Below are positions 3,141-64,000 of a stretch of 64,000 nt of DNA, one piece after another. Origin of the DNA: a virus. Under the pieces are notes generated by a model, which was not told where the DNA came from, did not search any database, and worked only from the letters and a program-made list of their open reading frames with translations. The stretch covers positions 1 through 64,000 of IMG/VR virus record IMGVR_UViG_3300010430_000007. The stretch is one strand, 5' to 3'. Each line of letters opens with the position of its first letter. The first letter of the stretch is position 1. The translations under genes and the position numbers were made by a program.

Positions 3141-3606
3141 CCAACTATCAATACACTTTAAAAATATTAACTCTATATTACTCCACCTCCTTGATACAAT
3201 CGAACAATTTCATACATTCAATACAGCTTAAAACACTGCATACTTTATTTGTAAGTGGATGTAAATCAAACATTGGACAAATAGTTGAATCCTCACCAGT
3301 TAAGTCATTGTGATTTAAAATTGTACCAATTCTAATTTCTTTATCTTTCTCTAATCCATCATCATATCCACAATGACCGATTATTTCATACTTAATGTAT
3401 TCCATATTTCCTCCTATCGAACATTGAACTTTGGAATTTCTTCAAAGGAAATTTTATCTTTTAAATTATTCCCGCATTCACTACAGTATTTGTCTTCACA
3501 ATCAACTGTTTGGTCACATTTTTCACATTTACATCTACTTACTGTTATTATTTTAATCATTTAGTTCCTCCTTTAATATTGTGATGAAATAGTGTTTTTA
3601 TTTGGT

Positions 3607-3726
3607 TTAATTAGAAATCAAAACTAACACCAACCAAATCATCAAATAAATCATTATAAAATTCCAACTAAACGCAAATGCTCCTGCACTGCACATTAGT
3701 AAATATAGTACCAATATCCAAATCAT
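3607..3726 (-). CDS. 39-aa hydrophobic membrane peptide bracketed by two palindromic sites
   Basis: GGGAGG SD then MIWILVLYLLMCSAGAFAFSWNFIMIYLMIWLVLVLISN*; below the ORF-track size cut-off. Confidence 0.55.
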   Translation of the reverse strand: MIWILVLYLLMCSAGAFAFSWNFIMIYLMIWLVLVLISN

Positions 3727-3990
3727 ACTCCACCTCCCAATGAAACTCACAATTCATGTGTTTTCTACTCATAGTCATTCAATAATCTACAATATTCATC
3801 TGCCAATTCTTTTTGTCTAACGTCTAAATGTTCATATTTTATTCTAAACGAGACTTCCCATTCACAATTTAATACTGTAAATGGGTAGAACTGAATATTC
3901 ATAAACTTTGAAAGTTCTCTTCTATTCTTCTTTAAGAATTTTTTCATCTTAGATTGCTTTCTAAAAAACATTTTATCACCTCTCTATAAT

Positions 3991-4019
3991 ACTATACCAC
4001 AAGACATAGTATATGTCAA
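3991..4019 (-). promoter_or_regulatory. sigma-A promoter
   Basis: TTGACA-17-TATAGT with an extended TG. Confidence 0.75.
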
Positions 4020-4844
4020 GTGTTAATTTTATTTATTTATAAACTTATTTATGCAATCATTACAATATAATCCAAGTTTTTCACTTGTTTCATAATATTC
4101 ACTACAGTGGTTGCACTGGACAACAGATAATACTTTAAATTTATCTACGTCATACGTCGTAGATATTCCAAATACATAATCGATTACAGCAGTAAAAATA
4201 TCACCTCTACTTAAGTCTTCCATATTAGATTCAAACTCTTTAACAATTTCATCTTCATATTTTAGGTAGTCCAAATAATCTTTATTTGTTTTCATATTAC
4301 CTCCTCACCTTCTTAAATGGATACCCTCCACCATCTTCGTCTAAGCAGTAGATAATCCTATAATTATCAGTATCATCTTTGTGTCTCTCATATTCACCCA
4401 TGGTTATTAATTCCCAATCGTCTTCTCTGCTTTTAATAATCCTCGGCTTGTATTGTTCACATTCACCATCTTTGCATTTTCCTACTATTGGGTATCCATC
4501 AGCACAATGTCCAATATACCAAGCACATATACGCCTAATTTTGCAATTCTCGTTCATGCAAGTATATTTATCCGGCATTCCTTTCATTTCTTTCACTCCT
4601 TCTTGACATTTGGTGTCTCTCATAAAGTCTAACCATAACTTCAAACTCACTTTTATTATACATCAATTTTTCCAATTTGTCAAGAGATAATTTATTTAAT
4701 TTCAAAATTAATTCTGCGTCTTTAGCCTCCACATAAAAACTTTCAAGAGACTTTGCATTGTATATTTTTTCTGCGCACATTTTAAATAGTGCAAGTTTTT
4801 CATGTGAAGACATATCTACCTCCTATCTATATATTTGATAATTA

Positions 4845-5276
4845 TTATAGCCTCCGTAGCATTATCGCACCGACAATTTCATTACTTCTACTAACTCTTA
4901 CTGGTGCTAGTTTGCCATGTCTACTGTCAGGCAATGTAATGTGCAATCCGTTCTTTTCTATGATGTCGTACAGATATTTATAAGTATAATACACACCATC
5001 TGTAACTAAATCGAAACTCTCCTTTTCTAACTCTAATATTGACGTATCGATATGTTTAAATTTTTGAGTATTCTGACAATTCACAACAGAAGAAGTCAAT
5101 AAAATCACTCTTTCATCATAATCACTTTGGCTATATTGCTTGATTGTAGCCTTTAGGTTTTTCGTCTTAACCTTGTCTAAAAAAAGGATTAACCCATTAT
5201 AGCAATAGATGAATTTATCTGTCTTCTCATGTCTAAATTTTGGGTCACTCCATTTATTATTCTTAAATTCTACCAT
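4845..5276 (-). CDS. Hypothetical protein
   Basis: 143 aa with SD; no recognisable motif. Confidence 0.7.
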   Translation of the reverse strand: MVEFKNNKWSDPKFRHEKTDKFIYCYNGLILFLDKVKTKNLKATIKQYSQSDYDERVILLTSSVVNCQNTQKFKHIDTSILELEKESFDLVTDGVYYTYKYLYDIIEKNGLHITLPDSRHGKLAPVRVSRSNEIVGAIMLRRL

Positions 5277-5351: not shown

Positions 5352-5371
5352 TAATACTAACATACTTTTAT

Positions 5372-17630: not shown

Positions 17631-19310
17631 GAAACCTCCTATAAATCTTTTGGAGAACTCAATATATCTACTTTCAACTCTCCGTCTTCTTCTGAAATCA
17701 TAACTTCAAATTCAATTTCATATCCTAAATATTTCAATTTATTCGCAGACTCTTCTGAAAATCCTAGCTCTATAGCTTCGTCTACCAATTCATAATTTTC
17801 ATCTTTTTCTCTGTTAAAATAAATTTTCTTTTTAAACATAGGCTTTCCCATAATTACTCCTCTCAAAACTCTATATAAAAGATTCATCACATATATTTAA
17901 AGAGCTCTTGTGACTTCTCTTTGTGTCATCTGTAACATATACGATAACTCCATGTCATCATCTGCATCCCATTCAATTTGAACTTCTACAGAACCATCTT
18001 TATAGTTTAATCCTCCAAGTAAAAATGCATCTGTATCAATCGTTTCCGTCTTATTCTCTTCTAAATTTTCAATTGTAATTTTAAATCTCTTCATAATTAT
18101 TCTCCTCTACCAATGAAATCAAAGTTTTATCTACTTTTTAATCTTTCCTCTACTAGTTGAGCCTTTTGCTATGTCAACTCCAACAATAGCCGAACCATTT
18201 GTAAATTTAAGTTCATTTTTAGTTGCCATTCCATTAAACTCATCCATACACTCATCGCTACAGATTCTAGCATGTGAGAAATCAACTATATCAGTCATTT
18301 TACCACAAATTAGACAAGGCTTTTCATCTTCGGCTATCAATAAGTACTTTTTCTGTTCTTCTGGAATTGCATCTTCAATAATTCCATTATTTCTTCTCAA
18401 TCCTCTTTTCATGATTACTCCTTTCTAAATAAAACAATTCTTTCATGTGGTTTATTCTTCGGTGTCTTTCAACAATTCTTCCGCATTTTTAACCATGTAT
18501 TTACTCAGTTGATTATATCCATTATTGATTTGCTCTTCACCAAAACCTCTAAATCTAGTTAAGGCTGGTTTAATCTCATCAGTTTCTGGATTCCAAGTTA
18601 ATGCCATACCTAATAAATGCAGTTGCTGATTAACAAAGAACAAAGCTCCAGATTCTCTGAACTCTTTGCCTGTGATTTCTTTTACATATTCGTCTTTTCC
18701 AAATTCTCTATTCATAATTACTCTCCTTTTAATTTGTCTTGAAATAACTATTTTATCGTGTTTTATTCTTTAATCTCAAATAAGCTATCATCACGTTTAG
18801 CTTTTGGTTTATCCCACACATGTCTATTTCTTTCGATTCTTTCTTGTGCCTCCTCATGTTCTCTTAACATATGTTCAACTCCATGTTCTTCATAAATAAC
18901 AGCACAATCCTCGCAAACATCTAAATCTTCCCCATCCACTTCAACCGCTTCTCCACATTCGATACACATATATTTAGAACAACCGCACTCTAATTGCTCT
19001 TCATCTTCTAGAAATTCATGTCCGCAACAATTACAATATGTTGGGTCAATTTCAAAATCTAAATTCCAACTCATACCAACCCTCCTATAGACTATCTCTA
19101 ATCTCTCTAATAAATCCTTCAATCTGACAATATTCACACGGATTGATTTCAATTTCTACATTTACATAGCCTTCACTTCCACAAGCTTCACAGCTTTGCC
19201 AATTGTCGCCATTTAGTTGAAGAGTCCCATTTTGATACTTGCAATCTTTATACGGACATCTCCACTTACAATAATCCTCAAACTCTTTTAATAATTTCTC
19301 TTCCATTTTA

Positions 19311-19883: not shown

Positions 19884-19961
19884 TCTTGCCTCCTAACTCA
19901 CCATGAAATACACGTTTCATCACAATTTTCGTCCTCTACAAGTATTGCAAATGCTACATTC

Positions 19962-20588: not shown

Positions 20589-21213
20589 TACTCCTCCTCA
20601 ACTTTCATTCCGCCATTTACCAACAACTCTAGTTTACCATAGCATTCTTCATTTGTCAACCCTTTATAATTATTTTTGCCTAAATAAAATCCACCCTCAT
20701 AAAAATATATTTGTAGATTATATGAAACCAAATCCGTTGCGATTGATACATACCTAGTAACTCTATCTTCATCATCGTTTAATTGATAATCTAGCTTATA
20801 AGTTCCTTGATACTTATGTCTGTATCCGAAATTCTTAAGTAGATTAATCATATCTTTCCACATTTTTATCCTCCTTTCACCACGAAACTTGCGCTTCATT
20901 TAGTCTCACTCTACACTTCGTAGTCATTACCAAAGTCTGACTTATCATCTCCAAACAACAACCAATTCGCTAATTCACATAAAATGTCGTCAAATTCAGC
21001 ATCATCAAAGTTCCATGCAATGTCGTTGATTTCATCCTGTGCTAATTGTATTTGATTATCTAGTACTTCCCAGTTGTTGTCACCAAACGCACTGTACTCT
21101 GGCAATCTATCTCTTTCCTGCTGTAGTGCTTTCACTAACTTTTCAATTCTTTCTTTTGTTGGTTTCATATTGACCTCCTATCATTCACTTGAAATATCGA
21201 TTTCATTGTGTTA

Positions 21214-23426: not shown

Positions 23427-24254
23427 CTATCTACCTAATTTTCCAATCGCATTATTTCTACTCTTTCTACTTGAATGAGCATAGTTCTCCATTACTGTAG
23501 AAACCTTATCTCCCAATAAATCTGCTACAACTTTTGGATTTTCTCCATTATCCAACAATTCAGTAGCAAATGAATGTCTTAGACTATGATACACATGTCC
23601 CGTTTCTTGATTCCAAACAAGACCAACTTTCTCATATCTTTTCTTTAGGTAGTCTCTTACACCATTTTCTTTCATACTAAATAATTTACCTTCAGTAATA
23701 TTTTCCTCTTCAATATACTGCTTCAAACATGATTCAAGTCTTTCTGTCATTGGAACAACTCTAGTTTTGTCTCTCTTACTTTTACGAACTGTGAATTCAT
23801 GAGTATAGAAATTAATATCTGATAATTCTAGTGCTAATGGCTCTGAAATTCTTAAGCCCGAATCGCACCCGAATAGTACAATTGCTTTATATTTGGTGTT
23901 GCACAATTCAATAATCTCATCAATCTGCTCAATTGGAATTGTCTCATAATGCTTTTCTTCCTTCTTTGGTCTAGGAAGTTCTTTTGAAATATTTTTACAG
24001 ATTTCCTTTTTCTCTAACCAAGTAAACAAAGTTTGAATAGCACTAATTTTTCTATTTACCGTAGATGCTTTTCTTCCCAATTCATTCATACTTTCAATCC
24101 ACTTCTCTAGGTCGTCCCTGACCACTGAAATGACATCCTTATCTGTAAATTGAAGTAGCTGTCTAATATCAGTCATATATCCCTTAACTGTAGTGTCTGG
24201 ATTCTTAACTTGCTTTCTCATATATTGTTCAAATTCATTTAAATACATTGTCAT
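23427..24254 (-). CDS. Tyrosine recombinase (XerC/D-like), with an N-terminal SAM-like domain
   Basis: GLRISE (R), RKSKRDKTR (K), HSLRHSFAT (HxxR), LLGD (H replaced by D), NYAH (Y). Start refined to ATG 24254 from SD AAAGGAG. Confidence 0.9.
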   Translation of the reverse strand: MTMYLNEFEQYMRKQVKNPDTTVKGYMTDIRQLLQFTDKDVISVVRDDLEKWIESMNELGRKASTVNRKISAIQTLFTWLEKKEICKNISKELPRPKKEEKHYETIPIEQIDEIIELCNTKYKAIVLFGCDSGLRISEPLALELSDINFYTHEFTVRKSKRDKTRVVPMTERLESCLKQYIEEENITEGKLFSMKENGVRDYLKKRYEKVGLVWNQETGHVYHSLRHSFATELLDNGENPKVVADLLGDKVSTVMENYAHSSRKSRNNAIGKLGR

Positions 24255-24677: not shown

Positions 24678-24938
24678 TTAATATTGAGATACTTTTATTG
24701 TTTTCATCTACATACTTTTCAAATCCACATTTACAATTTATGTGTATAATTTCATGAAGAAGATTTACTTTCAATTTTGTATCTTTCCAACTAGAGCCAC
24801 AATCGGGACACTTTTTATATTTTCTCACTACTTGATTAAATTTTCTATAATCCATAATTACCTCCTAACTCCTGATGAAATATGTCTTTCATCCACTTTT
24901 TCAAACTCTACAAGTGTTGCAAATGCTATATTCTTGAT

Positions 24939-25644: not shown

Positions 25645-26545
25645 ATTATCTCTCCTTTCTAATTGTCATAAAACAAGCATTTCGAGTGGTCTTAATACCA
25701 CACTTCTTCATTTTTATCTATCTTTGCTAACTTCAATATATCTTGTAGGTCGCACGCTTTGATTACTACATCTACATCTTCGTTTAGAGTCATGATTGAC
25801 CATTCTTCGCCTTTTAAATATAACCATGTTTCGTCGAAATTTAAATCGTTTTGAGCATTCTCAACGATACTAAACCTACTACATAACCTATTGATGGTTT
25901 GTTGTTGTAGTTTAATCGTGTGTGCTAATGCCGTACATTTATTACATTCTGCCATGATTTCTCCTTTCTGATTTTCCTCATGAATCTAACTTAAGTTCCC
26001 CTTAAATTCATTCACAATATCTTCCATTGGTTTGTTCTCTAATCTCAACATTTTAATATCTCTATTGCAGTTCCCAATGTAGAGATGATTATTAAAAATC
26101 ATAGATTCTATTTCAAAATTTTCAAACTTTGTTTCTTGTTCATAATAAGATTCATATTTTTTAATCTCTTTCTCTAATTCAGATACTTTATTCTTTAGCT
26201 TCTGTATTTTTCTATTGTTTACATCTAAATCATTTTGAACTACTAGCACTTCATTAAAATCCATAATAAACCCCCTCTTCTAACTCACCATGAAATCTCA
26301 GTTTCATCTACTTTATACTACGTCACAATCGAATCCCTCATAACTCATCATTTGAAAAATAAAACTATTTCCATGTTCATTAAAAGTGTGGACTGGTTTG
26401 GAATCATTATTCACCACAAATATATCCAAGTATCCAATTATAACTTCATACTTTTCTGGATTAAGTTTTGCTAATTTATACCACTTTTCATCTTCTTTGT
26501 TAAACATAGTTTATCATCCTCATCTCTTTGAAACTTTTATTTCAT

Positions 26546-27142: not shown

Positions 27143-27741
27143 ATAATTCCTCCTATTTTGTCTTAGTTTTATTTTACTATATCATACTACTTAATATTTG
27201 TCAACTTAAATTCCAAATGAAATCAACATTTCATCACCTGCTTAATGTATCAATCATATTTCTCAACATCTCATCTGTTCTTTTCTTACTGTATAGATAC
27301 CCATCCATGTATATTATATCCATTAAAGGCTCAATTATTCCTACGCAGACAATCTTATTTGTGTCTACATCATCACTCTGCTGTTTGTCTAAAATAATTT
27401 CTCTAAGTGTAATTTTATCTTGCATCTTTTCTATTGCATAAAAATAAGTTGGCAACTCGTTCATAAATACCTCCTTTTATCCTACATGAAATCGAACTTT
27501 CATTTGCTATTTGCTAAATAAAGCAACGCAACATAAGATACAATAGTCTCTTGTTTCTAAAGTTTCTACTACTTCTTCTTTGGTAAGCCCATTATTATCA
27601 AATGTAAGTCCATTAGGCTCTGGCGTTACTAGTTGAATCGATTCATCTTCTTTAATTATTTCGCCACAATGGTCACAGTATATTGTTTCTATTCTCATAA
27701 CTCTCTCCTCTCATTTGAATGAAATTGACCTTTTATGTTGT

Positions 27742-28941: not shown

Positions 28942-29267
28942 AAATATCCTCCTATTTTAAATCATTTTCATCAATTAATATTTCAATTTCAAATGGATTA
29001 TTCTCGTTTAATTGATTCAAATATCCACCAAAAGTCTCCATCATTTCCCATGCTTGAATTGTGTAATATCCTTCTTCATCAAGCTTCAAATTAAATTCTC
29101 CTATATCATAACCCATCGTGTATTTACAGTCGTATCTCATTTCTTCGTGTTCTCGTTTTAATACATCAATCCCAAATTCTGTTAATTTAATTTTTACATT
29201 GCTGTTGATGTTAAATCTATTCATTTAAACCTCCTTTATTATAAACCAAATAAAATAATCATTTCAA

Positions 29268-33554: not shown

Positions 33555-33556
33555 AA

Positions 33557-37772: not shown

Positions 37773-38510
37773 ATATTATCTATAAATATCTATAGTAGTC
37801 CAACTCTCTCCATATTGACCATTGTAATATCTTTGTTTAATTTTATAACTTGACAGCCAAATTAGTTCATAATTAATTCTTTTGGGAATCCAAGCAAACT
37901 TCTTGACTTCTCTGATAGTACCGTCTTTAATTTTCTTATATTTTTTAATTCTCATATTATCACCTCAATTACATGTTAACACACTTATTATTATTTGTCA
38001 ACTATAAATTTCTGAATAAATTGTGCATTTCATCGTCTTATTGATTTTTTATTCCATAAAATATATTTTGGATTCCTGTCTTCATAATTTGCAATTATCC
38101 ACTCAAGAATATCGTAGTTTCCTCTACTATAGTCAGATGCAAGAACACCTGTTTTCTCTAGGTATTTCTTTTGTTTTCTAGCTAGCCTAGTTAAATTTCT
38201 AACCGTGGGTTTTCTATATTTTCTTCTTCTCATATTATCTCCTTTCCAAATGAAATACATCTTTCATCGTTTCTTACAATCAACCCATATATAACCATTT
38301 TGAGAATCTACTTTTGTCACAATGTAATCATCGAAATCTCCGTACGGTATATTTTTTCCAATCATATCTTTCCAAGCTTTTAATGCAACTTCCTCTGGTA
38401 TAAAATCTCCATTTCTCTGAAGTCCAATCGGAACAGAAAAACAAATTGAATCTGAGTTTGGTATGGCTAAATCTACCCCTATTACATATTCATTGTTATT
38501 TGAAATCATA

Positions 38511-38981: not shown

Positions 38982-39028
38982 ATTTTATACTCCTTAATCT
39001 TCAAATGAAAGTCTTATTTCATGTTGAC

Positions 39029-39610: not shown

Positions 39611-40636
39611 AATTCGCCTCCTAATCTAATTTAGATGAAAGAACAATTTCATCATATTCCGAATAATCTATATGCTCTTTCTTCTCCCAAAGACGTATGG
39701 CTATCTTCAATTTTAGCATTTAAAATCCTATCATCACTATCAAAACACTCCTTACAGCAAGTTTGGCCTCCATATGGATGACCTTGTATCCTATGGTAAG
39801 TATTTTTACGCTTGCAAAATGAGCATGTAACCATATTTGTCAACTTTTTAATTTTTACCAACTTCATATTGTACCTCCTAATCAGTCCCTAAATAATATT
39901 GACTCCATCTTCTCTGTAGTTCACAACCTTCAATCTCTCTAAATTCACCATCATTACTTGCAAATGCAATTATGTTGTAGTCTGCTTTATAAACAGTTCC
40001 ACCTTCTACGTTCTGAACTTTGTCGTTTTCAAATTCTTTTAGAAAATCCATATAATCTCTACTCATGATTATCTCCTCTCATTTTTATACCACTCAGTTA
40101 ATTTCTCCAACTCATTCTCGTTTACAGAATCACCTTCTCTGACTTTGTTCTGTAGCTTCAATAATACTACTGTATATTCTAATACATTACCATCCAACTC
40201 TAGACACCTCCATTTTAATGTCGCTGTGTCCATTGTGCCTCATCTCAGTAGCATATTTAACTTCACTATATGTTAAACCTGCTTCGCTTTGATAATGTTC
40301 GTCTGGGTGGAAATAAATATATCCACTAGCAAACAGTACCAATAATATAATTCCTATAATAACTGCTTTCATATTAATCATCTTCAAACCCCTCCTGTTT
40401 AATTCTATTTACTTCTTCTGGTTCTATGCCTAGAAAACCTGCAACATATACTTCTGGATATTCGTCTATAGTTTTGTCGTTATAATCTCTCCATTTAAAC
40501 CATTTTTCTTTAAGTGTTAATTCGTTAAATGGCTTCTTTTTCTTTTTAAATAAATTCATATCAACTCCTCCTTTTGATAATATAAGTATATATCATTGAA
40601 ATGGGTTTGTCAATAGGTAAATGAAAATTAATATAA

Positions 40637-40664: not shown

Positions 40665-41138
40665 TATCTTAATAGTTTTCTAATGTCAATTATTCTAAGT
40701 GGATATAAGAATAAATGAAATAAGAACCATAAAAATATTTCAATAAATGTAGCACTATGAGCATACATAAACATTGCCCAATACAATGCAACTAATAATC
40801 CTATTCCTAAATAAATACACAACCCAATCATAAACACACCTCCTTTTAACAACTAGTTAAAATATGAATTTTATTTGATTGCTATTCAGCTCTTACTAGT
40901 ATTGTATTCATACTCTTAAATTCCACTTCAATTATACCATATTCTTGGTCATCAAACTTATTTCCACAATCGTAACAAGAATATCTCGGATACACTCTTT
41001 TTCTCCTCTTTCCGTTAATTGGTTGTCTGTCTATCCATTCTTCTCTAATACTCTTAGATTTAAATATTGTTGTTCCACTACATTTTGGACACTTCATAAG
41101 TCCTCCTTTATTCAAAATAAAATTGTAATTTCATGTTG

Positions 41139-41540: not shown

Positions 41541-42861
41541 AATTCTCCTCCTTTTAATTTGCCATGAAATAGATGTTTCATTTACTTTATAACTTGTTTT
41601 ACACATTCCCATAATGCGTCACACAAACAACTAGAGTCCTCTCTCCATAGTAATTGTCTATTTGTCAAATAAATGTCGTTCTTATCATCATTTTCTACAT
41701 ACTCAATTACAATCCAGTTGTTTGCTTTCTTACTTCTCTTTATATCATAAGTATGAATAGATTCATCTAGAATTTCCATCATTTTGCCAATATTAATATC
41801 TTGGGGTTTCATCATAAATGTGCTTTTCCCAACTAATTCAGAAAGTAATCTAAATCTTCTAGATGTTCTAACAACCGTTTCATATGGTCTTCCTTCTGGA
41901 CTGTAGTCGTCTTCTCTTTCTAGCTCTTTCAACTGCTCTTTTGTAATGTGTTGCTTCATAAGTCTCTCCTTTCTAAATCTAAATAAAATCGCCATTTCAT
42001 CACTATTTAAAAAAAATCTTCTTTCGTTTTTTTAATGGCACTCATAAATAAACAATAACATTCTTCGCATAAATCAACCTCGTCATCAATTACATTTACC
42101 TCTCTTTTTTCGTAGTAAGAAATTTCCTCTTTGCATTTTCTACACTTAAACATTTTTCTATCTGCCCAATCCATTATTCTTCCTCCTTATATCCTAATTT
42201 ACGTCTCAAATACCTAACTTCTGCCTTTAGAACCATATTTTCAACTCCCATTTTCGCTATGTTGGAAAATATATAATATAAGTATCCAATTAAAATCAAA
42301 CCAATTAAAATATAAACCCCAACTTCAGATACATCAGCCATAATCCCAACCTCCTATTCTACATGAAATTTAACTTTCATCTATTTTACAGCTTCTCAAT
42401 TATTTTAAACATTGCGTAAGACGTACATGGGATTGCGATTATTAGCTCAATTGTGTATATTTGAAAAATATCGCCATCCAGTATAAACTTCACCAACATT
42501 AAAATCATTAATATCAATAACACAACCAAGATAAACAATAATATCATAGTCATAATATCACCCTCCTTAACTCCACATGAAAGATTCATTTCATGGTGTT
42601 ATACCTTATTAATGGTTTCGCAAACTGGACACCATAACACACTCTCAACATCTCTCCAATCTGTATGGACATCTTTACTTGTATATTGAACAACAGACTT
42701 GCAATACCAACACTTACATATCTTACCTAATTTTCTTTTGCCGTATCCTTTTCCGTATTTGATTACTTTCACATCTCTCATCTCCTCTCAATACCATTAT
42801 ATCAAATCAATTCCATTTGTCAAGTGTTTTATGTAAATTAATTCAAGAAAAGACCGATTAT

Positions 42862-43416: not shown

Positions 43417-46278
43417 TATTACTCCTCCTTATTCAACTTCAATCTCTCTGATTCTATAATCATGCAAATCATAAATAAAACTCTGTAAATCATAAAATTC
43501 ATCACATAATTTACATTTGTCTTTTTCACATTCCTCTACATGTTCAGCCAAAACATTAAATCTCTCAGTATCATCCTTTATTTTGTGGTTCAAGTCGCCC
43601 AAAATCTTTTTAGCTTCATCTTCATTAAACCTAGCACAATGAATATACTCATGATAATCTTCCCATTCTCCATGAGAGCCCATAATTAAATATACTTTAG
43701 TCATTTAAGTTACCTATATTTACGATAATATCACTCTCGGTTATTTGATATTTATCAAATACCTCTAATTCCCATAATGAACAATACATAGGAAACTCAT
43801 CAATATCTGCTAAATCTCCAATCATACTTTTTCTATCTGAGCAATTAGATAAAATTCCATTTATCATCACTTCTGCATCATAAGTATCTGCTAATCTAAT
43901 CACTACATTTGCCTTGTAAAACTTCTCATTAAAATTATTCATCTTTACTCTCCTTTCACAATCCCATGTTCTTCCAAAGCTTCAATTGTTTTATCAATCC
44001 AAACACCACGTTCTTTACATTCTCTCAATAGTCCACCAATTAAATATGTCATTGCTTTGCCTTTTTCAAAACTCACTGCGTGCGGATAGATATAAGTTGA
44101 ATAACTATTTAAACAATCCATATGAATAATGTTTCTATTTGGAATAACATTCTTATCCATACATTCAAAATAAACACTCTCTCCAACTATTTCTTTTACT
44201 TCTATTTCACACTCTTCAATTTTAAAGTCTTTCATTTTTGCCACATATAATGTATTCATCTCATCCTCCTATACATAAAATAACATTTTCATGTCCTACC
44301 ACTCAATTAAAATGTGTTCTGGAGTGCCATAATCCATAGGTTCCATTGATGTAGCCGGTTCATATGAAAAATACTTGGCATCGAAGTCATAAATGTTTAT
44401 TAGGTCGTGAATAACTTCGTTGACAACTTCTTCCTTTATATCTTCATCCACATAAGTTGGAACATAGAACATTAAATGATTCAAATTATCCGATTCTCTA
44501 AGCTCTCTTTCAATTCCACCTAACATCATTTGTTTTTGTCTTGTAATTAATCCTAATTTTCTATCGTTACTTATTTTAATCATTTCGTCTCTGTTAATCA
44601 TTTTAAACTACTCCTTTCATTCACTATTTTAGAACCTGAATCCCACTAATTTCACTATAACTAAATCCTTTGACTTCTGTACAATGTTCAACCCATTCTT
44701 TACCAATATAATCAAGATAAACAGAGCAATTAATCATAAGTCTATCTCTACCAATTCTAAATACTTTGCCAATATATACACTATTTTCTGTATGGAGACA
44801 TAGCATATCATCCATATAGATATTAGTGTCTGATACCCCATATTTATCAACTAGATGCACGAATTGACCATCTACACTATTTATGTTTAGTATATTTACC
44901 TCCTACCATCACTTGAAACACACGTTTCATCTACCTAACGCTTCCAATTTCTCTTAAATAATAAGTAATTGATACAATCACTGCACTAAATGACATTACT
45001 TGCGGAACTTCATGTGCCCAAATTGAATATAGTAGAGTTAGAATCCATACACACAAGCAAATCCAATCTAAAGCCTTCATAGTTTTTTCATTCATATTAT
45101 TTCCTCCTCAAATTAACCATACACTAATTTATTCTATTTGTCAACCATTATTTCCTGATGAAATGTAGTTTTCATGTGGTTTGATTCATTTTTATTTTGG
45201 CTTCTTTTACAATATTATTCAAATAATCTACACTTGCAATCATCCCGCTTTTCAAGGCTTCATAAATACTATCGCAACTTTCACTGTGTATATATCTACC
45301 ATCTTTTTCAACATACACTGTATAGGTATATTTTGGAATTGCGCCAGACTCAACCTTTTCTGAATTGCCATTTTCAATTTGATTAATTGTCTCATATGTT
45401 ATAATTATACCGAATTCATTAGCAAATTTTTCAATGTCTCTTAATATAATATAAGTGTTTCTAACGTCTTCCATTATGCCTCCTTTTCATCATCAAACTC
45501 ATGTTTACAACCGTCACAGAAAAATCCAGCAACACAGTCAATGTCTTTATTGTATGGACATTTTTCAAGAGGAATTTCTTCTCCCTTATTATTTAAAATT
45601 GTGTGTACTGGATCAATACAGTCAATTATTTTTATACCCATATCTTTAGTGATTTTTAATATATCATCCAATATCATTTTCTTTCTCCCATCTTCTGATA
45701 GCTCGTCTTTCAATTCGTTGTAGTCTAGTGTTTTCTTTCTTGAGTTTCTTATTTTCTTCTTGTAAATGATATTTTTGAACCAACAATGACGAGTGTTTCC
45801 TGCACCAAATTAAAGTTTGTTCTAGCGATTCTGAAAACTCCTCCTCGTATTTTGCTTTTTCATCTTCTGCAATGTTCAAAATGTCTTCTGTAAATATCTT
45901 TAATTGACTCCAAAATAATTCAACTTCTTCATTAAATTCTTCGTTTGCTGTTTCTGATGCATAGTCAAAAATAAAACTATTTCTATCAATCAATTTTTTA
46001 AAACTCTCTGTGGCTTTAATTAGTTTTTTCACAGCTTCTCCTCCTTAATACTTAACAAATTCAATCTACGTGTCCGCTTCACGGCACTACTATATACCAT
46101 TTGAAATGAAGATTTTATTTGGTCTAGTCATTGCTGGTAATTCCCATATACCAATTTAAAAATGCTAATAATAACTGTATTGCGACCCAAATTGCATCTC
46201 CTTTGATTAATGCCGAAAATCCTCCAGCCAAACAAAAACCACTCACAAACATATTAAATCTTCCATAATTAAACATAA

Positions 46279-48038: not shown

Positions 48039-48094
48039 ATTTTTCCTCCTAAATTTTGTTTTAGCCCCACATAAAACTAATGTTTCATTTGGTT

Positions 48095-48553: not shown

Positions 48554-51538
48554 AATTAATCCTCCTAATATTTTATAATTTATTCTAACATAATTACTTT
48601 TATTTGTCAAGTGTTGTTTTAGTTGATTTTCTAATCATTAATCCTCCTCACTAAAATGCCATCTGTATCACAATAATAATGACATGTTGGACACGCAACT
48701 CTCGATTGAGTGTATAATCCTTTGTCTATGATTTCTATGTCTGACGCATTAAAAGAGAACTGCGTACTACACTTTATGCATGTCGTTTTTCTATCGTCTA
48801 GATTTAATATCTTCATAAGCCCTCCTTTTATTTTACACATGAATTATCAATTTCATGTTGTTTATTCTACTGTGGATACATCCCAGTCGTATTCTTCTCC
48901 AATTACATAAGAATCTTCTTCATAGTCTTCAATATTATCTCCGTCTATAAATTTCTCTAAAGCTTCGGCTTTATTTTCTGCTTCAATTATAGAGACTCTT
49001 GTCTGCCTACAATCATATTTTATAATATATTTCATACTATCTCCTTTCTACGTCTATGAAATAACTGTTTCATTTGGTTTATTTACCTGCCTCTATGTAA
49101 TACCCGTTGGTGTTATTTTTAGAGACTCCAAGAACTTTCTCTACAATTCTTCTTTCATCAATCCACTTTACAGTAAGTCTAGTTGTATTAGAAGCGTCAA
49201 CTCTTACTCCACATCCAGAACATGCATGACTGCATTGATATGTTGGATATGGCTCACCACATTTATTACACACATTGACCTCGTGAAAATTTCCATCTGT
49301 AAATCTGTATTTTGCTCTTACTCCTTTTGGTTTGATTGTATTCATCTTGTCCTCCTTCATCTTATATATAATTATACCATGACCAAAACTTATTTGTCAA
49401 GGATTATTTCTAGCCTTTTAGTTATAAAATTATTATAAGTCTGTGGTCTATCAATTAATTTATTTATACCATCTAACTGACCCTCTATGTTTTTACATAA
49501 ATCAATCAGAGCAGAAAACCTATTTCTCTCATTTTTGTCAAAAGCTTCGTACATTTCTTTGTCGTAATTTTCTCCGTTAAACAGTTTCTTTCTTTCATTG
49601 ATTGCATTTTCTTTATCTTTTTCAAGTCTCTCTATAAGCCTCAATATTTCTTTAGTATCTTGTAGCATAATTACCTCCATTTTTCTATTTTTAACTTTAT
49701 AGTATTTCCAACACTTGTAGCCATTCAAACTCACGATGAAATAGCCGTTTCAAGTGGTTATTAGTAATAATCAACAACTTCAACCTTCACGAAAGATGTT
49801 TTAGAAATATTGATTACGCCTACATTTTCTATGTTTATTTGTCCATTTAATCCTTTTTGATAGCAATCTTTAACTAGTTGTTCAAAATCCTGTCTTTGTT
49901 GATTTGTATCTTCGAGTTCGTTTTCGAAAAAATCAGTGTCATACGTTTCTTTTACACCACTATCATACAAAACAATAAATCTTAATGCATATTTGTTCAT
50001 ATTATTTACCACCTTTCTTAAATCTTCTCATCATAATTCCAATTTTAATCTTATTACTCATCACAATCCTCCTAAATATCCAACATATAACCAGTTGGAG
50101 TGTAGCCAAATCTTTCACAAATTCTATCAATAATACTTTTAACTGTATAAACATTGACATCTAAATCGCCCAAGCTGACAGTAACTACTTCTTCACGAAT
50201 CATTACATTTTGTACATCAATGTCATAGAAATACAATTCGTTATATATTACCTTTTCAAGATTGTTCATCATAATCCTCCTATTTCAATAACTCAGCCAA
50301 TTCGTCTTCCAGTCTAGTCTTCTGTAAGTTCCAGTATTCTTTTAAAACTTCTAAGTCCCTAGGCAATAACTCTGTTTTAGACATATGCTCCGAGAATTCT
50401 TCGCCATAAGCAAGATAGAACTCATCCATATAACTTCTTGTAGCAAAATCAATTTTCTTTTCTATATCCTCTATTTGACTACAAATACTTGCAATTTCTT
50501 TAGCTTTTTTAATTTGTTCATCTTTACTCATCATAATCCTCCTCAAATAATCCTCTTAACGACTCCAGCTCTTCCTTCCCTAAGTTTTTAACAGCATCTA
50601 AATCCATTTCGTCCAACTCTCCAATTGCTTCGTCATAACTGTATTGTTTCAACGCGTCCTCAATAATCATAGCACAATCTACACACTCGTTGTCGCTGTT
50701 TAATGCTGTATAGTTTCCACATGTTACGCAAGTTCCTTCATGATTCATATTAATTTTCCTCCTTTGACAAGTCTTCCAATATCTTAGCAATCTCATTGTA
50801 TGCAGATAGTTTGTGATTCAAATCATCCATCATATCAGAATAATAGTCTCTGTTCTCCAAAAGCTCTCTGTATTGCGAATAAGAAATTTCTTCTCCTTTT
50901 GAATGCTCTTCTCTAATTTCTATTAGTCTATCATCTGCCTCATTCCATAGTGTGTTGTAATGAGTTCTGTAACTAGCTATATCGTCTCTCTGCTTTTTAA
51001 TGATTACAACTGCACTTTCTAAATTCATTTCATTTCCTCCTCAATCTCTCTTATTAATTATATTATACTGCTTGTTTAATCGTGTGTCAATGGTTATTTT
51101 AATCTTTTATCATTTTAATTCCAGTTTCTTTTTCTAGCATTCTCACCACATCATGTTTTTTGATGACTTTTCTTACGTTCATATGTTTCAACAACACATT
51201 TTTCATATCTTCTTTTGTATTCATAGTTCCAACAATTCTACAACATGATTCACAATATAGAGACCATTTGTCTGAGCAACCAGTATGCTTTACAACTCTG
51301 TAAACTATATGAAGACCTCTTTCATCTATTGGTGAACATATAATCATATCACCGTGATAAAACTTGAGTCTTCGTTTTTGATTCTTGAAATCTAAATAAT
51401 ATTCTTTCACATTCTTACCTCCGTTTTATTTTATAATTAATTTTACCACGTATAGTATACCATGTCAACACTTTTATGTAATTTATTTTGATTATTTTTA
51501 ACTTCAGATGAAAGCAAGATTTCATGTGGTTTTTGTAA

Positions 51539-51566: not shown

Positions 51567-51983
51567 AGTTTCAAATTTTTTAACTGTTTTATTCTGCCTG
51601 TTGATTCAATATCATAGCACTCTTCGCACAACTCTAATTTTGCTCTTGCAACATAACTAACTTTATCTTTCAAATCTTTTTGCCTCAATCGTCTTCCGCA
51701 TCTATCACAACTTGATATTGAGTTAGATTCTACTCATTTGGTATCGACTTCTTTTTCTTGCCAATCATATTGCCCCAACGTCTTAAAAACTTTTATATGC
51801 CCTATCTCATCACACCCAGAAAACTGTGACCTAAACCTAGAGTGTTCAAACCATATAGTGTAATCACTGTCTTTTGAGCACAATTTTCGTGGTTGATTGT
51901 CTATCATCCAATTAATACATTCTTTAACACCTGTCATATTTTATCTCCTTTAATTAAAACCCAATGAAATTGGCATTTTATCA

Positions 51984-53836: not shown

Positions 53837-55160
53837 TTTTATTCTCCTTTAAATGTCTTTCAACGGAATATAGTCTATTATCTATATTTTTTAAATGTCT
53901 AACTACTTCTTCGTTAATCTCTATCAGTTTACCTATACCCAAAAAATATCTTACAAGTTGTGACAGAATCGCAATTGCAATAAATAATCCAAGGATTATG
54001 ACAATAGCAACCAAAGTTTCTTTCATTTTAATCCTCCTAAGTCCAAATCCAACCTTTTTCACTATTAATAACCAACTCATACAATTCATCATCTGTAATC
54101 TCAACCAACTCAACAGAACCAGTTCTCCAAAAATATTCTTGATTACCTTTAGTATACATGTGTTTTATACCTACTTCTAATAGTTCTTTTGATATCGCAT
54201 ATAAATGTCCATCTGGTCTAGAACCAAACTCATATTCAGTTACAGGCGTTCTATATAATGCTCTAATCATAATAATCCTCCTAGTAAACAATATTGATAT
54301 AGTATAATTCCAAGTAATCCAGCTAAAAATAGCGTTGCTCCAACCTTTTTCTTTGTTGGTTTTATTGAAAATTCTTCACTACAGCTAAAGCAATACATTA
54401 GAGCTATAGATGCAATATAATATATAAAAATCATTTTAATCCTCCTTTAAAATTCCACTTGAAATCTATGTTTTATCGTGTTTTAATAATCTTCTTGATT
54501 AATCACAATTACATTCGTTGCATTTGGATTTAAGATTAGCTTTGCATCTCCCATAATTCTTAAGCTACCATCTTTGTCTTGAGTGATTGAAATCTCATTT
54601 CCATTAACGTCAAATCTAACAACATTAGTTTCAACCTCTTTAATTTCGTCCTTGTAATTATCTAATTTTACAGTTGTTTTCATAACATCTCCTCCTTATA
54701 AATCAATCATATCACAATATTGATGTGGTTGCAAGTGTTTATTTAACAATATTAATTATTTTATATCCTCTATGTTTCATTTCGCTTCTGATTATTTTAT
54801 CAGAAATTAAATAGTTATACTCGTTCATAATTTGAAATTTTAATTGTTGTAGGTTTTCAATCTGGGAATCAATATTCTTAATTATTCTAATATTGTTGGT
54901 TGTTTTATACTCGTTTAACTTAAACTTTTCACTCATTAAAATAGCAATTTCCTTTTGAGTTTTTAAATAAGTTATATCCTCTTCGATTGACGATATTTTA
55001 TCCTTTGCACTCTTTATAAAGTTTATACTTTTATTTAAGTTGTCTTTGTATATTCTAGTCTTTATCTTTCTTCTAATAGTCGTGTTTGATGAAAATCCAT
55101 CACTATAAATCTTATATAGGTTTGACAACGCTTTTTTATCCATATTACCCATATTCCCTC

Positions 55161-55951: not shown

Positions 55952-56372
55952 AATTTCCTCCTATTTTCTAAAATCAACTTTGTAGTGTTTTCAACGGTTA
56001 CAGCGTTTCAAAAACCACATGAAACGACGATTTTATCAGTTCTGCTAATTCATTCCTCTGAAATCAAAGTCAATTTTATTTTTGAATATATATTCCAACT
56101 CAGAAATCACATATACATCATCAATTTTTTGTGAAATCCATTCATTATCCAAGTCTAAAGTTTCTCTATAGAATAAATCCTTTACTTTGTCATAGTAAAT
56201 ATCTCTTCTGACTCTTCCATCAATATAACATAAAATATCTCCATCTGCAACTTGTCTAAAAACATTAATCAATTTGTTCATTTCCAACTCCTCCTCTTAT
56301 CTTCTTAACTACATTATATCATTCTATACTCTATTGTCAATACCTTTTTGAAAATAATTTAATTTATTTATA

Positions 56373-58097: not shown

Positions 58098-58146
58098 AAT
58101 ACTCCTCCTTTTAAAATTCACCATGAAACCTATATTTCATCATAAG

Positions 58147-60407: not shown

Positions 60408-60479
60408 ATGTAATTCCTCCTCTATTTTTCTTAATATTATCATAATATAATAAATTTGTCAAGTAGCTGGTATAAAATA

Positions 60480-60835: not shown

Positions 60836-60942
60836 CCATATTATCACATCCACCACAATAAATATCAATACTCATAAATATTCATACATATAAACATTTA
60901 CATGTATCTATGAATACAATTTCGACTCATATTGATGATTAT

Positions 60943-61164
60943 CTAATCGCCTGCATGAAGTAACTCAGACATTTTGCTCATGTGAACTCTAATCTCTTGA
61001 AGCTCCTCAATCCAATCACGTACATTATCATACGTAATCTCTTGATTGTTTCTCATTAGCCTATGCATTTCTGGACTCATATGGTTAACTATCTTTTGGT
61101 TAACCTTAAATATCTCTTGTGTAATCTCTTGTAATTCTTCCTTAGTAAATACTGTAACTTTCAT
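60943..61164 (-). CDS. Hypothetical protein
   Basis: 73 aa with SD GGAGGG. Confidence 0.65.
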   Translation of the reverse strand: MKVTVFTKEELQEITQEIFKVNQKIVNHMSPEMHRLMRNNQEITYDNVRDWIEELQEIRVHMSKMSELLHAGD

Positions 61165-61353
61165 CTCATACCCTCCATATCTTTATATTATACTCTCTAA
61201 CAATTCTTACTATCTACTCTAATCAACTACCGCTTTAAACTCGCTACCTTACAACTCAATTTCTAGCCCTATAACACCACTGCGTAATCTATTCTATTAT
61301 TCCGCTTTGGTGTAGTGTTGGCGGTAAAATGGTGATTGTCTTGTGTGACGTGG

Positions 61354-63720
61354 CTATTTATCAATAACCACAATCACAGTTTTAATTTTTGTATGACTAA
61401 ATTGGTCGTCATTATTATACCATTCAGCACAATTATTATCAATAAACGCTCTGAAATCTTGACTCTCCTTGTCATTTGCAAAAGTCCAATGTGGTGACAT
61501 AATCGCAACAAGTCTACCACCTTCTTCTAGTAATTCATAGGCGTGTAATACATGTTTGATGTCTTGATTTTTGCTAAAAGGCGGATTCATTAAAACCTTA
61601 TTAAACTTAATGTTAGTTTCATACTCTAAGAAGTCACCATTATTTACACTATAACCACTATCTTTTAGATACTCACAAAACTCATATGAATACTCACAAC
61701 AAGTTATGTTTTCTTTGCTTGTAATATACGCTATTTTATCGGCAATATTTCCAAGTCCAGCAGACGGCTCAAGAACGGTGTCGCCATCATTTAAATTTGC
61801 ATAGTCAATCATCTTATCAACTAATGAGTCGGGCGTAAAATGAACGTCACCTTTTTGACTCGATTGCTCAAGTTGCTGTCTTTTTAATTTTCTTTGAGCC
61901 TGTGCTTTTGCTTCTGGGTTATCAATATATTCAAGAATCATTTTATAAATATAAACTAATTCAATCAATTCAGATTTATTATTGATTCCTTTTTGTTGTA
62001 ATTTCTTGATTCTTTTTTTCTGGTCATCATTAAACCACTCTGCGTTTGATGGGCTTACTGTTGGATATTCCAAAGTACCTCTATTATCAGAATACATATA
62101 TCTTTGAGTTAGCTCTCTGAATGATGACACAATGAATAATTTAATCTTTGGGTTATAGTCACCACTGATTAATTTTTCTTTGATGTATATTAACACATTT
62201 TTATCATCTTCAAGCACCTCAATTTTTCGCACCCTTTCCGCTTGTTCTCTCATTCTTTTTGGTGTGTTTGTTAAATAATCACCACTTAAAGCATTGATTT
62301 TTTTATCAAGTGAGGCAATTTGTTTTTCAATTTGGGCAAGTTCTTTTGTGTTATCGTCAACTTTTACTTTTGTTTCTTTTTTCTTTACTTCATCTTGAAT
62401 AATTTCAGAAGATTGAAGAGACTCTACGAAGCCTCTTTTTTCTTCTGTATCTTTAGTGTACCATATTTTATTAACTCTGTGCCATCTAAAACCATTATCT
62501 TTCAACTGCTTTCTAACTTCTTCCGAAGGCTTGCCAGTGAATGAAAGTTCAATACCATTTTTTTCATCGTTGAAATTAACTGTCATTTCTAAATCATTAT
62601 TATCTGATTCAGTTTTTAAGCTTGTTTTAACTGATTCTTTTTTAGTTGACTTTTGAGGCTTCGCAGTTTCCCACGCTTCATATTCTTCTATGATTTCCTC
62701 GTCAATAATATCACATGCAACAATAGCACCTTTTGAAATCCATTGGTTTAATCTTTCAATATCTCCAGTGAATCTATTTGAGCGTGTAGCACTACCAGTT
62801 AACATTTTTGTTAATTTTCCGTTCATTTTGAAAGCTCTATCAAATCCTAGTTCATTGTCTAATTTATAAATGAATCCACTACGACAACCATAGTTAAAAC
62901 TAGATACTAGTTTAAAATATTTAGCATCTTTCATATCTTTAACTTCTAGAAGCTCAACAACCTTTTTAACTGTTGTTTTTTTAGTCTTAATTACTTTTAC
63001 AAGTTTATCATCTTCTTGAGCTTGTAATCCTTCTTTTTCAGTTTTTTCTGTGCCGTCTCCAACAACTGTTTTTGTTGATACAATTTTATTCATCTTGTTA
63101 ATGAATTTTTCAAAACTGTCAATCAATTTTTGTTCATCAAGTGAAGGCTCTGAAGCTTTTCTGACTTGGTTTCCGTTTTCGTCGTGTTCTCCAGTCCATC
63201 TATTGCGTGATTCGTATTTCATTTCATGACAGTTATAGTCCCAAGTTAATGAGCCAAATTTATAAATACCATTGCCTTTTGCTACAACTCCGCCATCTTT
63301 TTCTATATGCCATTTTGTAGTTTTGCCAACTTCTTTCGATGTCATATAAGTAGGGTAAATATCAACTACAACTTTTCCAGCTTCAGCGGATGCATTGATT
63401 TTGTCTATCATATTTTGAGCGTTAGCTTTTTCGCCTTCACTCGCCGCGTGGTTGTCTCTAAGTGCTTCAAGTTTTGAAATCTTTGAAAAGTCTACATTTT
63501 TAGTATTTTCTATAATTTCTTTTCCGCTTTCACTTTTTGACCAAGCGTCAACAACAAGAGTAAACCCATTTTTAGTTGCAATTCCATTCCAGTATGCAGG
63601 TGAGTAATAATCTGTCATTGAGTCACTTTCGTCTGCTCTATATCCGTAAATCTTCCACCCTTGATTTTTTAATGCGTGTGCTATATTTGTTTTTGCTTTT
63701 CTTTCGTCATGATATCCCAT
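61354..63720 (-). CDS. Large multidomain (polyvalent-type) protein with a C-terminal N6-adenine methyltransferase-like domain
   Basis: C-terminal HFTP...VLEPSAGLG...MNPPF...GGRLVAI; central GIELSFTGKPSEEVRKQLKDNGFRWH...WY module. Confidence 0.8.
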   Translation of the reverse strand: MGYHDERKAKTNIAHALKNQGWKIYGYRADESDSMTDYYSPAYWNGIATKNGFTLVVDAWSKSESGKEIIENTKNVDFSKISKLEALRDNHAASEGEKANAQNMIDKINASAEAGKVVVDIYPTYMTSKEVGKTTKWHIEKDGGVVAKGNGIYKFGSLTWDYNCHEMKYESRNRWTGEHDENGNQVRKASEPSLDEQKLIDSFEKFINKMNKIVSTKTVVGDGTEKTEKEGLQAQEDDKLVKVIKTKKTTVKKVVELLEVKDMKDAKYFKLVSSFNYGCRSGFIYKLDNELGFDRAFKMNGKLTKMLTGSATRSNRFTGDIERLNQWISKGAIVACDIIDEEIIEEYEAWETAKPQKSTKKESVKTSLKTESDNNDLEMTVNFNDEKNGIELSFTGKPSEEVRKQLKDNGFRWHRVNKIWYTKDTEEKRGFVESLQSSEIIQDEVKKKETKVKVDDNTKELAQIEKQIASLDKKINALSGDYLTNTPKRMREQAERVRKIEVLEDDKNVLIYIKEKLISGDYNPKIKLFIVSSFRELTQRYMYSDNRGTLEYPTVSPSNAEWFNDDQKKRIKKLQQKGINNKSELIELVYIYKMILEYIDNPEAKAQAQRKLKRQQLEQSSQKGDVHFTPDSLVDKMIDYANLNDGDTVLEPSAGLGNIADKIAYITSKENITCCEYSYEFCEYLKDSGYSVNNGDFLEYETNIKFNKVLMNPPFSKNQDIKHVLHAYELLEEGGRLVAIMSPHWTFANDKESQDFRAFIDNNCAEWYNNDDQFSHTKIKTVIVVIDK

Positions 63721-64000
63721 TTTATTCTCTCCTTTTAATAAACCGATGAAATTCTAATTTCAAGAGGTTTTATCTCTTCTTTAACTATCTTTATTATACC
63801 ACTTTTAACACTCTGTGTCTATAGTTTTTAACAAGTTTTTTAAATTAATTTTTCTTTCTCTGTATTCATTATATGCACAGGCTAGCAATACAACCGTCGC
63901 AGTTCCCCAAGTCCAACTCATTCTATATAAGAATAATGCTACGTCTTTATAGTCCATTTTTAAACCTCCTATGCATCTGGATACATTTCATAAAAACAAT

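Follow-up and report, generated by a model that had tools for sequence, protein, structure and literature searches.

The first 64 kb of the 133,911-bp IMG/VR virus record IMGVR_UViG_3300010430_000007 (this stretch is referred to below as the window, and the whole record as G000) carries dozens of copies of an 18-bp dyad site, WTRAAA-N6-TTTYAW, in which two inverted half-sites stand on either side of a variable 6-bp spacer. There is good support for the view that these sites are duplex DNA dyads marking the joints between gene modules, and that in related phages they are preferred crossover points with conserved addresses. On a further reading, which we judge to have an even chance of being right, they are addressed recombination sites that would allow the exchange of gene cassettes, with a phage tyrosine recombinase as candidate enzyme; this reading draws on the geometry of the sites, a rule of spacer identity, the statistics of the spacers and the co-occurrence of sites and recombinases. 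Its main rival is recombination through short homology, and readings in which the sites act only as operators, or in RNA, are less likely. Non-homologous gene exchange exactly at gene borders is a long-standing open question in phage biology. Here the joints are marked by a defined and countable site and, since the same site is present in SPbeta, a tractable model phage of Bacillus subtilis, the question is directly testable.

A dyad site between the genes of the early block

Between 1.3 and 66.3 kb, G000 possesses 147 genes, all on the minus strand, which code for a DnaE-type polymerase, a DnaB-like helicase, a RecJ-like exonuclease, a primase, RtcB and nucleotide-salvage enzymes, among other proteins. 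Because the record also encodes a YonO-type RNA polymerase (860 aa, 78873-81455 on the plus strand, beyond the window; 46% identical to SPbeta YonO, with the DxDGD motif), we consider G000 to be SPbeta-like and, judged by the four marine-sediment DNA sequencing runs in which the stretch was found, it is a marine-sediment phage; no RNA run was listed as containing it. No close relatives of the window were identified by megablast against the phage collection, nor any of G000 in a scan of IMG/VR.

A first-pass annotation of the window had reported about 51 copies of the motif, against about 2 expected by chance. Scanning with the pattern given above yielded 47 exact matches, compared with a mean of 1.65 and a maximum of 5 in 100 dinucleotide-preserving shuffles, and copies with one mismatch in the core at 3740 and 48839 raise the total to about 49, which bears out the original estimate. 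The scan of the full genome that the annotation had called for revealed 56 copies in G000 versus 2 for a reversed control, only 4 of the 56 lying past 70 kb. Spacer length is fixed at 6 bp: 22 pairs of perfect arms flank an N6, against 0-1 at each other spacing (0-12 tested), and when up to one mismatch is allowed the counts are 51 at N6 and 0-5 elsewhere. Strong conservation is limited to 6-7 bp per arm, while the outer 4 bp form a weak symmetric consensus (aaaCCAC / GTGG in G000), and the two arms are alike and not distinguishable. Of the extended 11-6-11 site proposed earlier, this weak flank consensus stands, but the flanks of one site do not match each other any better than chance, with 1.37 of 5 complementary pairs versus 1.50 +/- 0.13 in shuffled pairs.

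Dyad sites occupy 46 junctions of the 66-kb, 147-gene early/accessory block, about one for every three genes, which supports the proposal that they divide the accessory genes into modules. At up to one mismatch, 48 of 51 copies are intergenic in a genome of which only 14.5% is intergenic. On the minus strand the order is stop codon, dyad site, Shine-Dalgarno sequence, start codon, with a stop-to-site gap of -4 to +8 nt in about 43 copies and a site-to-start gap of 12-28 nt in most. This agrees with the arrangement first described, as does the position of the upstream stop codon, which in some copies lies within the arm as TGA and in others abuts or overlaps the site (Table 1). Likewise, no junction sites were found in the replication core (5.2-18.1 kb) or from 21.2 to 24.8 kb, in accordance with the earlier account of a site-free core and a site-free salvage/recombinase block. 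Three matches fall within open reading frames (5099, 28449 and 36231); these probably arose by chance or represent atypical copies. Sigma-A-like promoters are present downstream of the sites at 27217, 45158, 51508 and 64472, 12-45 nt after the site. A sigma-A promoter was also considered as the identity of the site itself and was rejected, given the wrong spacing of the arms and the position of the real promoters downstream of the sites.

The location of the site between stop codon and Shine-Dalgarno sequence, often with the stop in its 5' arm and in one distant phage (G006) sometimes with the next ATG in its 3' arm, would also suit an intercistronic hairpin that acts in RNA through processing, stability, termination or translational coupling. 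The variable position of the arms speaks strongly against this. Read on the coding strand of G000, it is (G,C) in 31 copies, (A,C) in 15, (G,T) in 11 and (A,T) in 2, and when the genomes of G006 and a second distant phage, G005, are added, 58 (A,C) mismatches and 36 (G,T) stand against 7 compensated (A,T), where about 13 (A,T) would be expected. Thus, across three genomes, the uncompensated (A,C) is the commonest variant and the compensated (A,T) is depleted. Flank pairing is no better than in shuffled pairs in G005 and G006 as well as in G000, so that the 6-bp A-U stem, which would be unstable, is not extended by its flanks; no U-tract follows the site; and, where promoters are present, the site lies upstream of them, leaving those transcripts without it. 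The half-sites vary independently of one another, and sites with two weak halves are avoided, which argues for a protein-bound duplex dyad rather than a stem. Since there is no covariation between the arms, we therefore take the element to be a double-stranded DNA site composed of two half-sites, reject an RNA hairpin or terminator as its identity, and hold a function in RNA to be very improbable.

Spacers and breakpoints across related phages

IMG/VR was scanned with one extended form of the site for contigs with multiple copies. G005 (143 kb) carries 85 copies versus 4 for the control, and G006 (160 kb; G007 is the same phage) carries 86 versus 4. Both genomes have their sites concentrated where small genes form long co-oriented arrays, the consensus is ccCc-arm-N6-arm-gGg, and the upstream TGA stop lies within the arm in about a quarter of sites. 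The number of distant homologues shared with G000 is 8 for G005 and 14 for G006, and their DnaE proteins are 24-26% identical to that of G000; distant homologues of YonO are present in both. SPbeta has 34 copies of an A-rich variant, which is its top palindrome and is specific to N6, often with the upstream TAA stop within the arm; phages Perkons and Kirov have 51 and 25 copies, and two Logan contigs that were chosen via RtcB (L011 and L012) carry variants of the site. The conservation of the site class thus reaches far beyond gene similarity. A literature search found no published description of it. The possibility of a host-wide repeat was rejected, as a scan of genome contigs gave only scattered single matches over many phyla.

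Two further repeats were noted in these genomes. In L011, a 72-kb contig, a repeat of about 28 nt precedes three dyad sites (12635-12662, 16364-16391 and 19344-19371) and is another junction-associated element. G001 (IMG/VR, 115 kb), whose DnaE is the nearest to that of G000 (55%), is without G000-type arms but carries a related dyad, TAAAT-N6-ATTTA, in 13 copies, of which several lie at 30-42 kb between stop codon and Shine-Dalgarno sequence; this may be a lineage-specific variant of the site.

The spacers were compared within each genome for 261 sites in G000, G005, G006 and SPbeta. There was not one pair of identical spacers (6.8 expected from column shuffles, P 0.0013), not one reverse-complement pair (6.9 expected, P 0.001) and not one self-complementary spacer (7.1 expected, P <0.001). 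A second null based on random intergenic hexamers, applied to the 227 sites of G000, G005 and G006, gives expectations of the same order (7.5, 7.0 and 4.1, respectively). The binding site of a regulator provides no reason for such uniqueness, which is what recombination calls for when the centre of the site determines both partner and direction.

To compare breakpoints, we relied mainly on SPbeta, phi3T, Goe11 and SPR, which are 91-100% identical where homologous. One block that is 99.97% identical between SPbeta and phi3T runs from base 1 of one site to base 15 of another and, among 271 unique block ends in the four phages, starts cluster from -10 to +1 of a site and ends from +14 to +23. Homology breaks at 36 of 51 site junctions versus 53 of 223 junctions without a site (odds ratio 7.7, p 7e-10), and among gaps of at least 18 nt without a site 41 of 115 are broken (p 4e-5 versus site junctions), p-values that are optimistic because orthologous junctions were counted in several of the four genomes. 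At 25 junctions only one side is shared, the downstream side in 12 and the upstream side in 13. In 21 of these the two phages agree over the full 18 bp including the spacer, with a break flush with the outer edge of the site; in about 3 the sites have different spacers, and homology breaks where the left arm meets the spacer or close by. Two checks that the annotation had suggested can be answered from these data: orthologous junctions do keep their spacers (21 of the 25, and the site at 24875 in a relative of G000), and breaks do sit on the sites, but mostly flush with their outer edges instead of inside the 6-bp spacer. A given address is found joined to varying partners on each of its sides; it is therefore part of both flanks, which is the signature of a crossover point. 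Between G005 and G006, many homology blocks start or end within a few nucleotides of a site, and homologues are still adjacent at 1 of 25 and 0 of 22 site junctions, compared with 10 of 65 and 11 of 60 at site-free junctions.

A different role was considered in which a dimeric DNA-binding protein of the phage uses the sites as operators to control early and accessory genes, with recombination incidental; its mode of action could be that of a roadblock or silencer placed after each module, or of a factor for early shut-off. The first of these modes is known from the stoperators of cluster A mycobacteriophages, asymmetric 13-bp sites that are bound by a helix-turn-helix repressor (L5 gp71) and lie in one orientation in both arms of the genome. 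The dyads resemble them in being dozens of copies of a short site in the short gaps of long co-oriented operons, but they are symmetric, and the early region holds all but 4 of the 56 copies, so that L5-type stoperators, named as an alternative in the first-pass annotation, do not describe them. Cooperative binding of a dimer would fit the independence of the half-sites and the scarcity of doubly weak sites; the dyads are restricted to the early block transcribed by the host RNA polymerase and are nearly absent from the YonO-type late block; and in G005 and G006 the site mostly moves with the downstream module, like a cis-regulatory head. There is also a precedent in SPbeta, in which MrpR (YopR), a protein with the tyrosine-recombinase fold that has lost recombinase function, is a repressor whose operator, SPBRE, is a repeated intergenic element (PMC10516654). 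SPBRE thus shares with the dyad the phage group, the repeated intergenic position and a binder with recombinase fold, but it is a different 15-bp motif found at about ten SPbeta promoters, overlapping the -10 element in nine of the ten regions examined, whereas the 34 dyad copies of SPbeta lie elsewhere. The MrpR operator, also named as an alternative at first, was accordingly rejected as the identity of the dyad site. Furthermore, the dyads do not overlap promoters, the sigma-A-like ones following them at a distance, and an operator gives no reason for spacers that are unique, non-complementary and non-palindromic within a genome, or for breakpoints that cluster at both edges of the site. Nor was a regulator conserved across the lineages found among the proteins common to G000, G005 and G006, only enzymes (MazG, dNMP kinase, HNH endonucleases and similar). 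Taken as a whole, we find a purely regulatory role improbable.

A model for cassette exchange and its candidate enzymes

From the sequence comparisons we infer that the crossover is site-specific and made by a tyrosine recombinase. A site comprises two inverted WTRAAA half-sites with a weak C-rich flank, arranged round an asymmetric 6-bp centre that is unique in the genome, and such sites mark the joints between modules of the early/accessory block. When related genomes meet in one cell, by co-infection or as phage and prophage, sites with the same centre could pair and cross over within the 18 bp, and two crossovers at different addresses would swap the intervening block, even if the genes in it were unrelated. 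The exchange would resemble recombinase-mediated cassette exchange with heterospecific lox or FRT sites. As every centre differs from all others of its genome and from their reverse complements, and is not a palindrome either, the genome would not delete or invert its own modules. Identical spacers in the partners and an asymmetry that sets direction are general properties of the core sites of tyrosine recombinases, for which the 21 of 25 one-sided junctions with identical spacers and the spacer statistics are indirect evidence.

The most likely catalyst would be a phage tyrosine recombinase, with one monomer per arm. G000 carries two, a YopP-like protein (23427-24254; Table 1) and an orthologue of YomM (107602-108624, 53% identical), both of which are candidates, with host Xer enzymes as further ones. 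The best SPbeta match of the first is YopP (E 7e-8); it keeps the Arg, Lys, His-x-x-Arg and Tyr residues, with Asp in place of the second His, and its gene lies in the middle of the block among genes for nucleotide metabolism. The dyad motif is abundant in SPbeta, which has three recombinase-like genes (YopP, MrpR and YomM), and in G000, G005, G006, Perkons, Kirov and vB_BcoS-136, which have two tyrosine recombinases each, vB_BcoS-136 showing the weakest enrichment (17 versus 6 for the control). By comparison, the motif is absent from TR-TP1, which has one classical integrase, and not enriched in the D-1873 contig, which has no tyrosine recombinase, a co-occurrence seen in a small sample of genomes that are not phylogenetically independent.

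Several observations weigh against addressed recombination by such an enzyme. From one motif-bearing lineage to another, YopP-like proteins can barely be aligned (E 7e-8 to 0.008); Lys takes the place of the second catalytic Arg in YopP and YomM of SPbeta and in the YomM orthologue of G000, and the early recombinase of G000 has the Asp substitution mentioned above. The near relatives of G000 give no support for breaks at sites. Two of them (L008 and L009) are uninformative, being 100% identical to G000, and the only other one, L010, in which the recombinase gene is about 85% identical in DNA and 87% in protein, keeps an 80-nt intergenic block round the site at 24875 with the same spacer, next to unrelated flanking genes; homology breaks off at the start and stop codons on either side of the block, and no site is present at the other end of the replacement. 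Thus, in these relatives, the breakpoint check that the annotation had suggested points to the ends of open reading frames and not to the sites. Contigs from the population in the four marine-sediment runs diverge at the ends of open reading frames or within genes and, at low coverage, none of those listed does so in a spacer; where read-derived contigs were aligned to 26001-46000, depth was low, there were few loose ends, and the listed joints with 21-22-nt sides are probably spurious. In G005 versus G006, the entire site usually stays with the downstream module. Moreover, breaks are also seen at 24-36% of site-free junctions in the SPbeta group, and sites are therefore not required for exchange. 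Finally, in laboratory hybrids of phi3Ts and SPbeta, 15 of 16 junctions lie in ordinary homology (bioRxiv 10.1101/2020.05.06.055103).

As an aside on these hybrids, coordinate conversion places N1, the single junction reported as non-homologous, at about 9 nt from a site that both phages have (SPbeta NC_001884 116414-116431, phi3T KY030782 107931-107948), with flanks that are otherwise non-homologous; this is only suggestive.

Some of the same observations suit a crossover role that needs no dedicated enzyme, in which the site is a conserved linker whose 12-18 bp of identity are used by the general recombination of phage or host (for the phage, a Sak4-like annealase, a RecJ-like exonuclease and a Holliday-junction resolvase), its primary function being something else. 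Breaks flush with a fully shared 18 bp are as expected of crossover in the longest local identity, and fit this account and addressed recombination equally well; the three genes are annotated in SPbeta-like phages; the many breaks at junctions without a site, the longer 80-nt unit shared with L010 and the formation of laboratory hybrids mainly in homologous regions all agree with it. A documented precedent is the shuffling mediated by PeSL cassettes in T4-type phages, short repeated intergenic elements in hyperplastic regions of small, non-essential early genes at which insertions, deletions and replacements occur; each consists of a sigma-70 promoter and a terminator hairpin, and exchange takes place by recombination between the repeats (PMC2839356). 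The dyads are likewise short repeated intergenic elements at the places where relatives change genes, but they differ from PeSLs in having a fixed 6-bp variable centre with genome-unique spacers and neither a strong sigma-70-type promoter nor a terminator stem-loop, the stem not being under selection; with most sites 12-28 nt from the next start codon, there is no room for a promoter. On the other hand, 18 bp is very short for efficient homologous exchange, and a linker leaves unexplained the strict 6-bp spacing, the inverted arms and their conservation at about 25% DnaE identity. It also gives a poor account of the missing palindromic spacers (0 versus 4-7 expected) and of the different-spacer junctions that break at or near the boundary of arm and spacer. 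We therefore regard the linker explanation as rather unlikely, if well worth weighing.

Addressed recombination has its nearest parallel in the cassette exchange engineered with lox and FRT sites and their enzymes Cre and Flp, in which inverted arms surround a short asymmetric spacer (13-8-13), only sites with the same spacer recombine, and a block between two different spacers can be exchanged with no risk of deletion. The phage sites share this design, but they are natural, have a 6-6-6 architecture (weakly about 10-6-10) and 46-90 different spacers per genome, and have a candidate enzyme only. The kinship with XerCD/dif, pdif modules and integrons drawn in the first-pass annotation does not extend to membership of any of these families. 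A dif site has two different inverted arms of about 11 bp, for XerC and XerD, round a 6-bp centre and occurs once per replicon, and pdif sites alternate in orientation round their modules and are thought to use the host Xer enzymes. As with pdif, modules that recur in different contexts are bounded by sites with a 6-bp spacer, and cleavage is presumed to take place between arm and spacer; however, G000 has 56 copies with like arms, its modules share a single orientation, and recombinases are encoded by the phages themselves. Because the arms cannot be told apart, an alternation of the pdif type is not even definable. Integrons have attC sites of 57-141 nt, recombined as a folded single strand with extrahelical bases and paired R''/L'' and L'/R' boxes, together with attI and a Pc promoter at the head of the array and an IntI integrase that has a signature domain of its own. 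The phage modules resemble integron cassettes in that a promoterless open reading frame is directly followed by an imperfect palindrome in a co-oriented array, along with a tyrosine recombinase, while the element measures only 18-26 bp and pairs no further than its consensus. Integrons in phages have been claimed (PMC9892861).

The idea in the annotation that the phage uses these as recombination sites with its own tyrosine recombinase is thus partly supported, by site geometry, module boundaries, breakpoints in relatives, spacer rules and the co-occurrence of recombinases, with the acting enzyme remaining a matter of inference and breaks occurring at junctions without a site too. Somewhat more tentatively, SPbeta-like and other large DnaE-encoding siphophages of Firmicutes may carry a natural cassette-exchange system, composed of dozens of heterospecific sites, each with the same arms and a unique 6-bp address, and a phage tyrosine recombinase of the YopP or YomM type that cuts and rejoins them. 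If exchange is indeed driven by an enzyme, this would represent a new natural logic for mobile cassettes, with many mutually incompatible sites as addresses, and a dedicated mechanism behind phage mosaicism by which non-homologous modules are swapped without self-deletion; it would also give a role to the conserved, unexplained YopP and YomM, and provide ready-made orthogonal recombination sites for engineering. Even if they are only linkers of short homology, the sites still explain where modules break in this group of phages.

Site coordinates and neighbouring features

Table 1 Dyad sites and the candidate recombinase gene in the window. Gaps are given as stop-to-site/site-to-start distances in nt on the minus strand.
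Feature	Position	Strand	Detail
dyad site, gene junction	3584..3601	.	gaps 5/23
dyad site, one mismatch, gene junction	3740..3757	.	gaps 7/13
match in open reading frame, atypical, probably chance	5099..5116	.	>250 nt from any gene end
dyad site, stop abutting	18113..18130	.	gaps 0/18
dyad site	18429..18446	.	gaps 5/16
dyad site	18739..18756	.	gaps 6/23
dyad site in ~100-nt repeated intergenic block	19903..19920	.	gaps 41/19; block 74% identical to 24875 block
dyad site	21189..21206	.	gaps 7/20
YopP-like tyrosine recombinase gene, candidate enzyme	23427..24254	-	Pfam PF00589 1.8e-23; XerC-like PDB match 9e-19
dyad site, spacer kept in L010, both neighbour genes replaced	24875..24892	.	gaps 46/19
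dyad site	26290..26307	.	gaps 5/25
dyad site, stop abutting	26528..26545	.	gaps 0/20
dyad site, stop abutting, then sigma-A-like promoter	27217..27234	.	gaps -1/74
dyad site	27486..27503	.	gaps 3/21
dyad site	27719..27736	.	gaps 5/20
match in 399-aa open reading frame, atypical	28449..28466	.	position in open reading frame
dyad site, stop abutting	29250..29267	.	gaps 0/25
dyad site	30893..30910	.	gaps 2/24
dyad site	32121..32138	.	gaps 5/23
dyad site	32719..32736	.	gaps 5/20
dyad site	33191..33208	.	gaps 4/12
dyad site directly after RtcB	34273..34290	.	gaps 5/28
dyad site	36149..36166	.	gaps 4/16
match in open reading frame, atypical, both arms weak form	36231..36248	.	position in open reading frame
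dyad site, then ~45-nt second conserved element	36544..36561	.	gaps 5/67
dyad site	36945..36962	.	gaps 5/27
dyad site, upstream TGA within arm	37287..37304	.	gaps -4/16
dyad site, upstream TGA within arm	38250..38267	.	gaps -4/16
dyad site	39005..39022	.	gaps 6/23
dyad site, stop overlapping	39635..39652	.	gaps -1/24
dyad site, both arms weak form	40857..40874	.	gaps 7/19
dyad site	41117..41134	.	gaps 4/19
dyad site, stop abutting	41564..41581	.	gaps 0/23
dyad site	41983..42000	.	gaps 6/23
dyad site	42363..42380	.	gaps 5/21
dyad site	42577..42594	.	gaps 4/23
dyad site	44275..44292	.	gaps 3/15
dyad site, stop abutting	44913..44930	.	gaps 0/52
dyad site, upstream TGA within arm, then sigma-A-like promoter	45158..45175	.	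gaps -4/62
dyad site, long leader after	46101..46118	.	gaps 5/68
dyad site	48071..48088	.	gaps 6/32
dyad site, one mismatch	48839..48856	.	gaps 5/22
dyad site	49056..49073	.	gaps 5/20
dyad site, then second conserved element	49736..49753	.	gaps 7/67
dyad site, then sigma-A-like promoter	51508..51525	.	gaps 25/97
dyad site	51964..51981	.	gaps 2/26
dyad site	54459..54476	.	gaps 6/24
dyad site, then second conserved element	56019..56036	.	gaps 8/67
dyad site	58123..58140	.	gaps 6/25
dyad site upstream of 788-aa methyltransferase-domain gene	63746..63763	.	gaps 41/25

Following the sites at 36544, 49736 and 56019, the minus strand has a second conserved element, about 45 nt long, ahead of the Shine-Dalgarno sequence (window 36480-36543, 49670-49735 and 55955-56018), with a constant site-to-start gap of 67 nt. 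It holds TTGAAA-like and TAGAAA-like boxes about 20 nt apart, and could be a non-canonical promoter or a small RNA element. The intergenic blocks round the sites at 19903 and 24875 (19870-19972 and 24850-24960) are 74% identical over 108 nt and represent a longer form of the junction element, with 41-46 nt from stop to site, which is also the unit conserved in L010. At window position 22292 two contigs of independent assemblies, from ENA and JGI, each 100% identical to the record, both end exactly, which may reflect a point of strain variation or an assembly break.

Among the genes themselves, three code for HNH endonucleases (7161-7580, 16290-16922 and 42862-43365), and the minus strand carries accessory cargo that includes an RtcB RNA ligase (34296-35477), a protein related to Fe-S oxidoreductases (57147-58124) and a TelA-like protein (59460-60443). 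The 788-aa protein encoded at 61354-63720 on the minus strand combines a C-terminal DNA methyltransferase domain with a weakly primase-like stretch in its middle.

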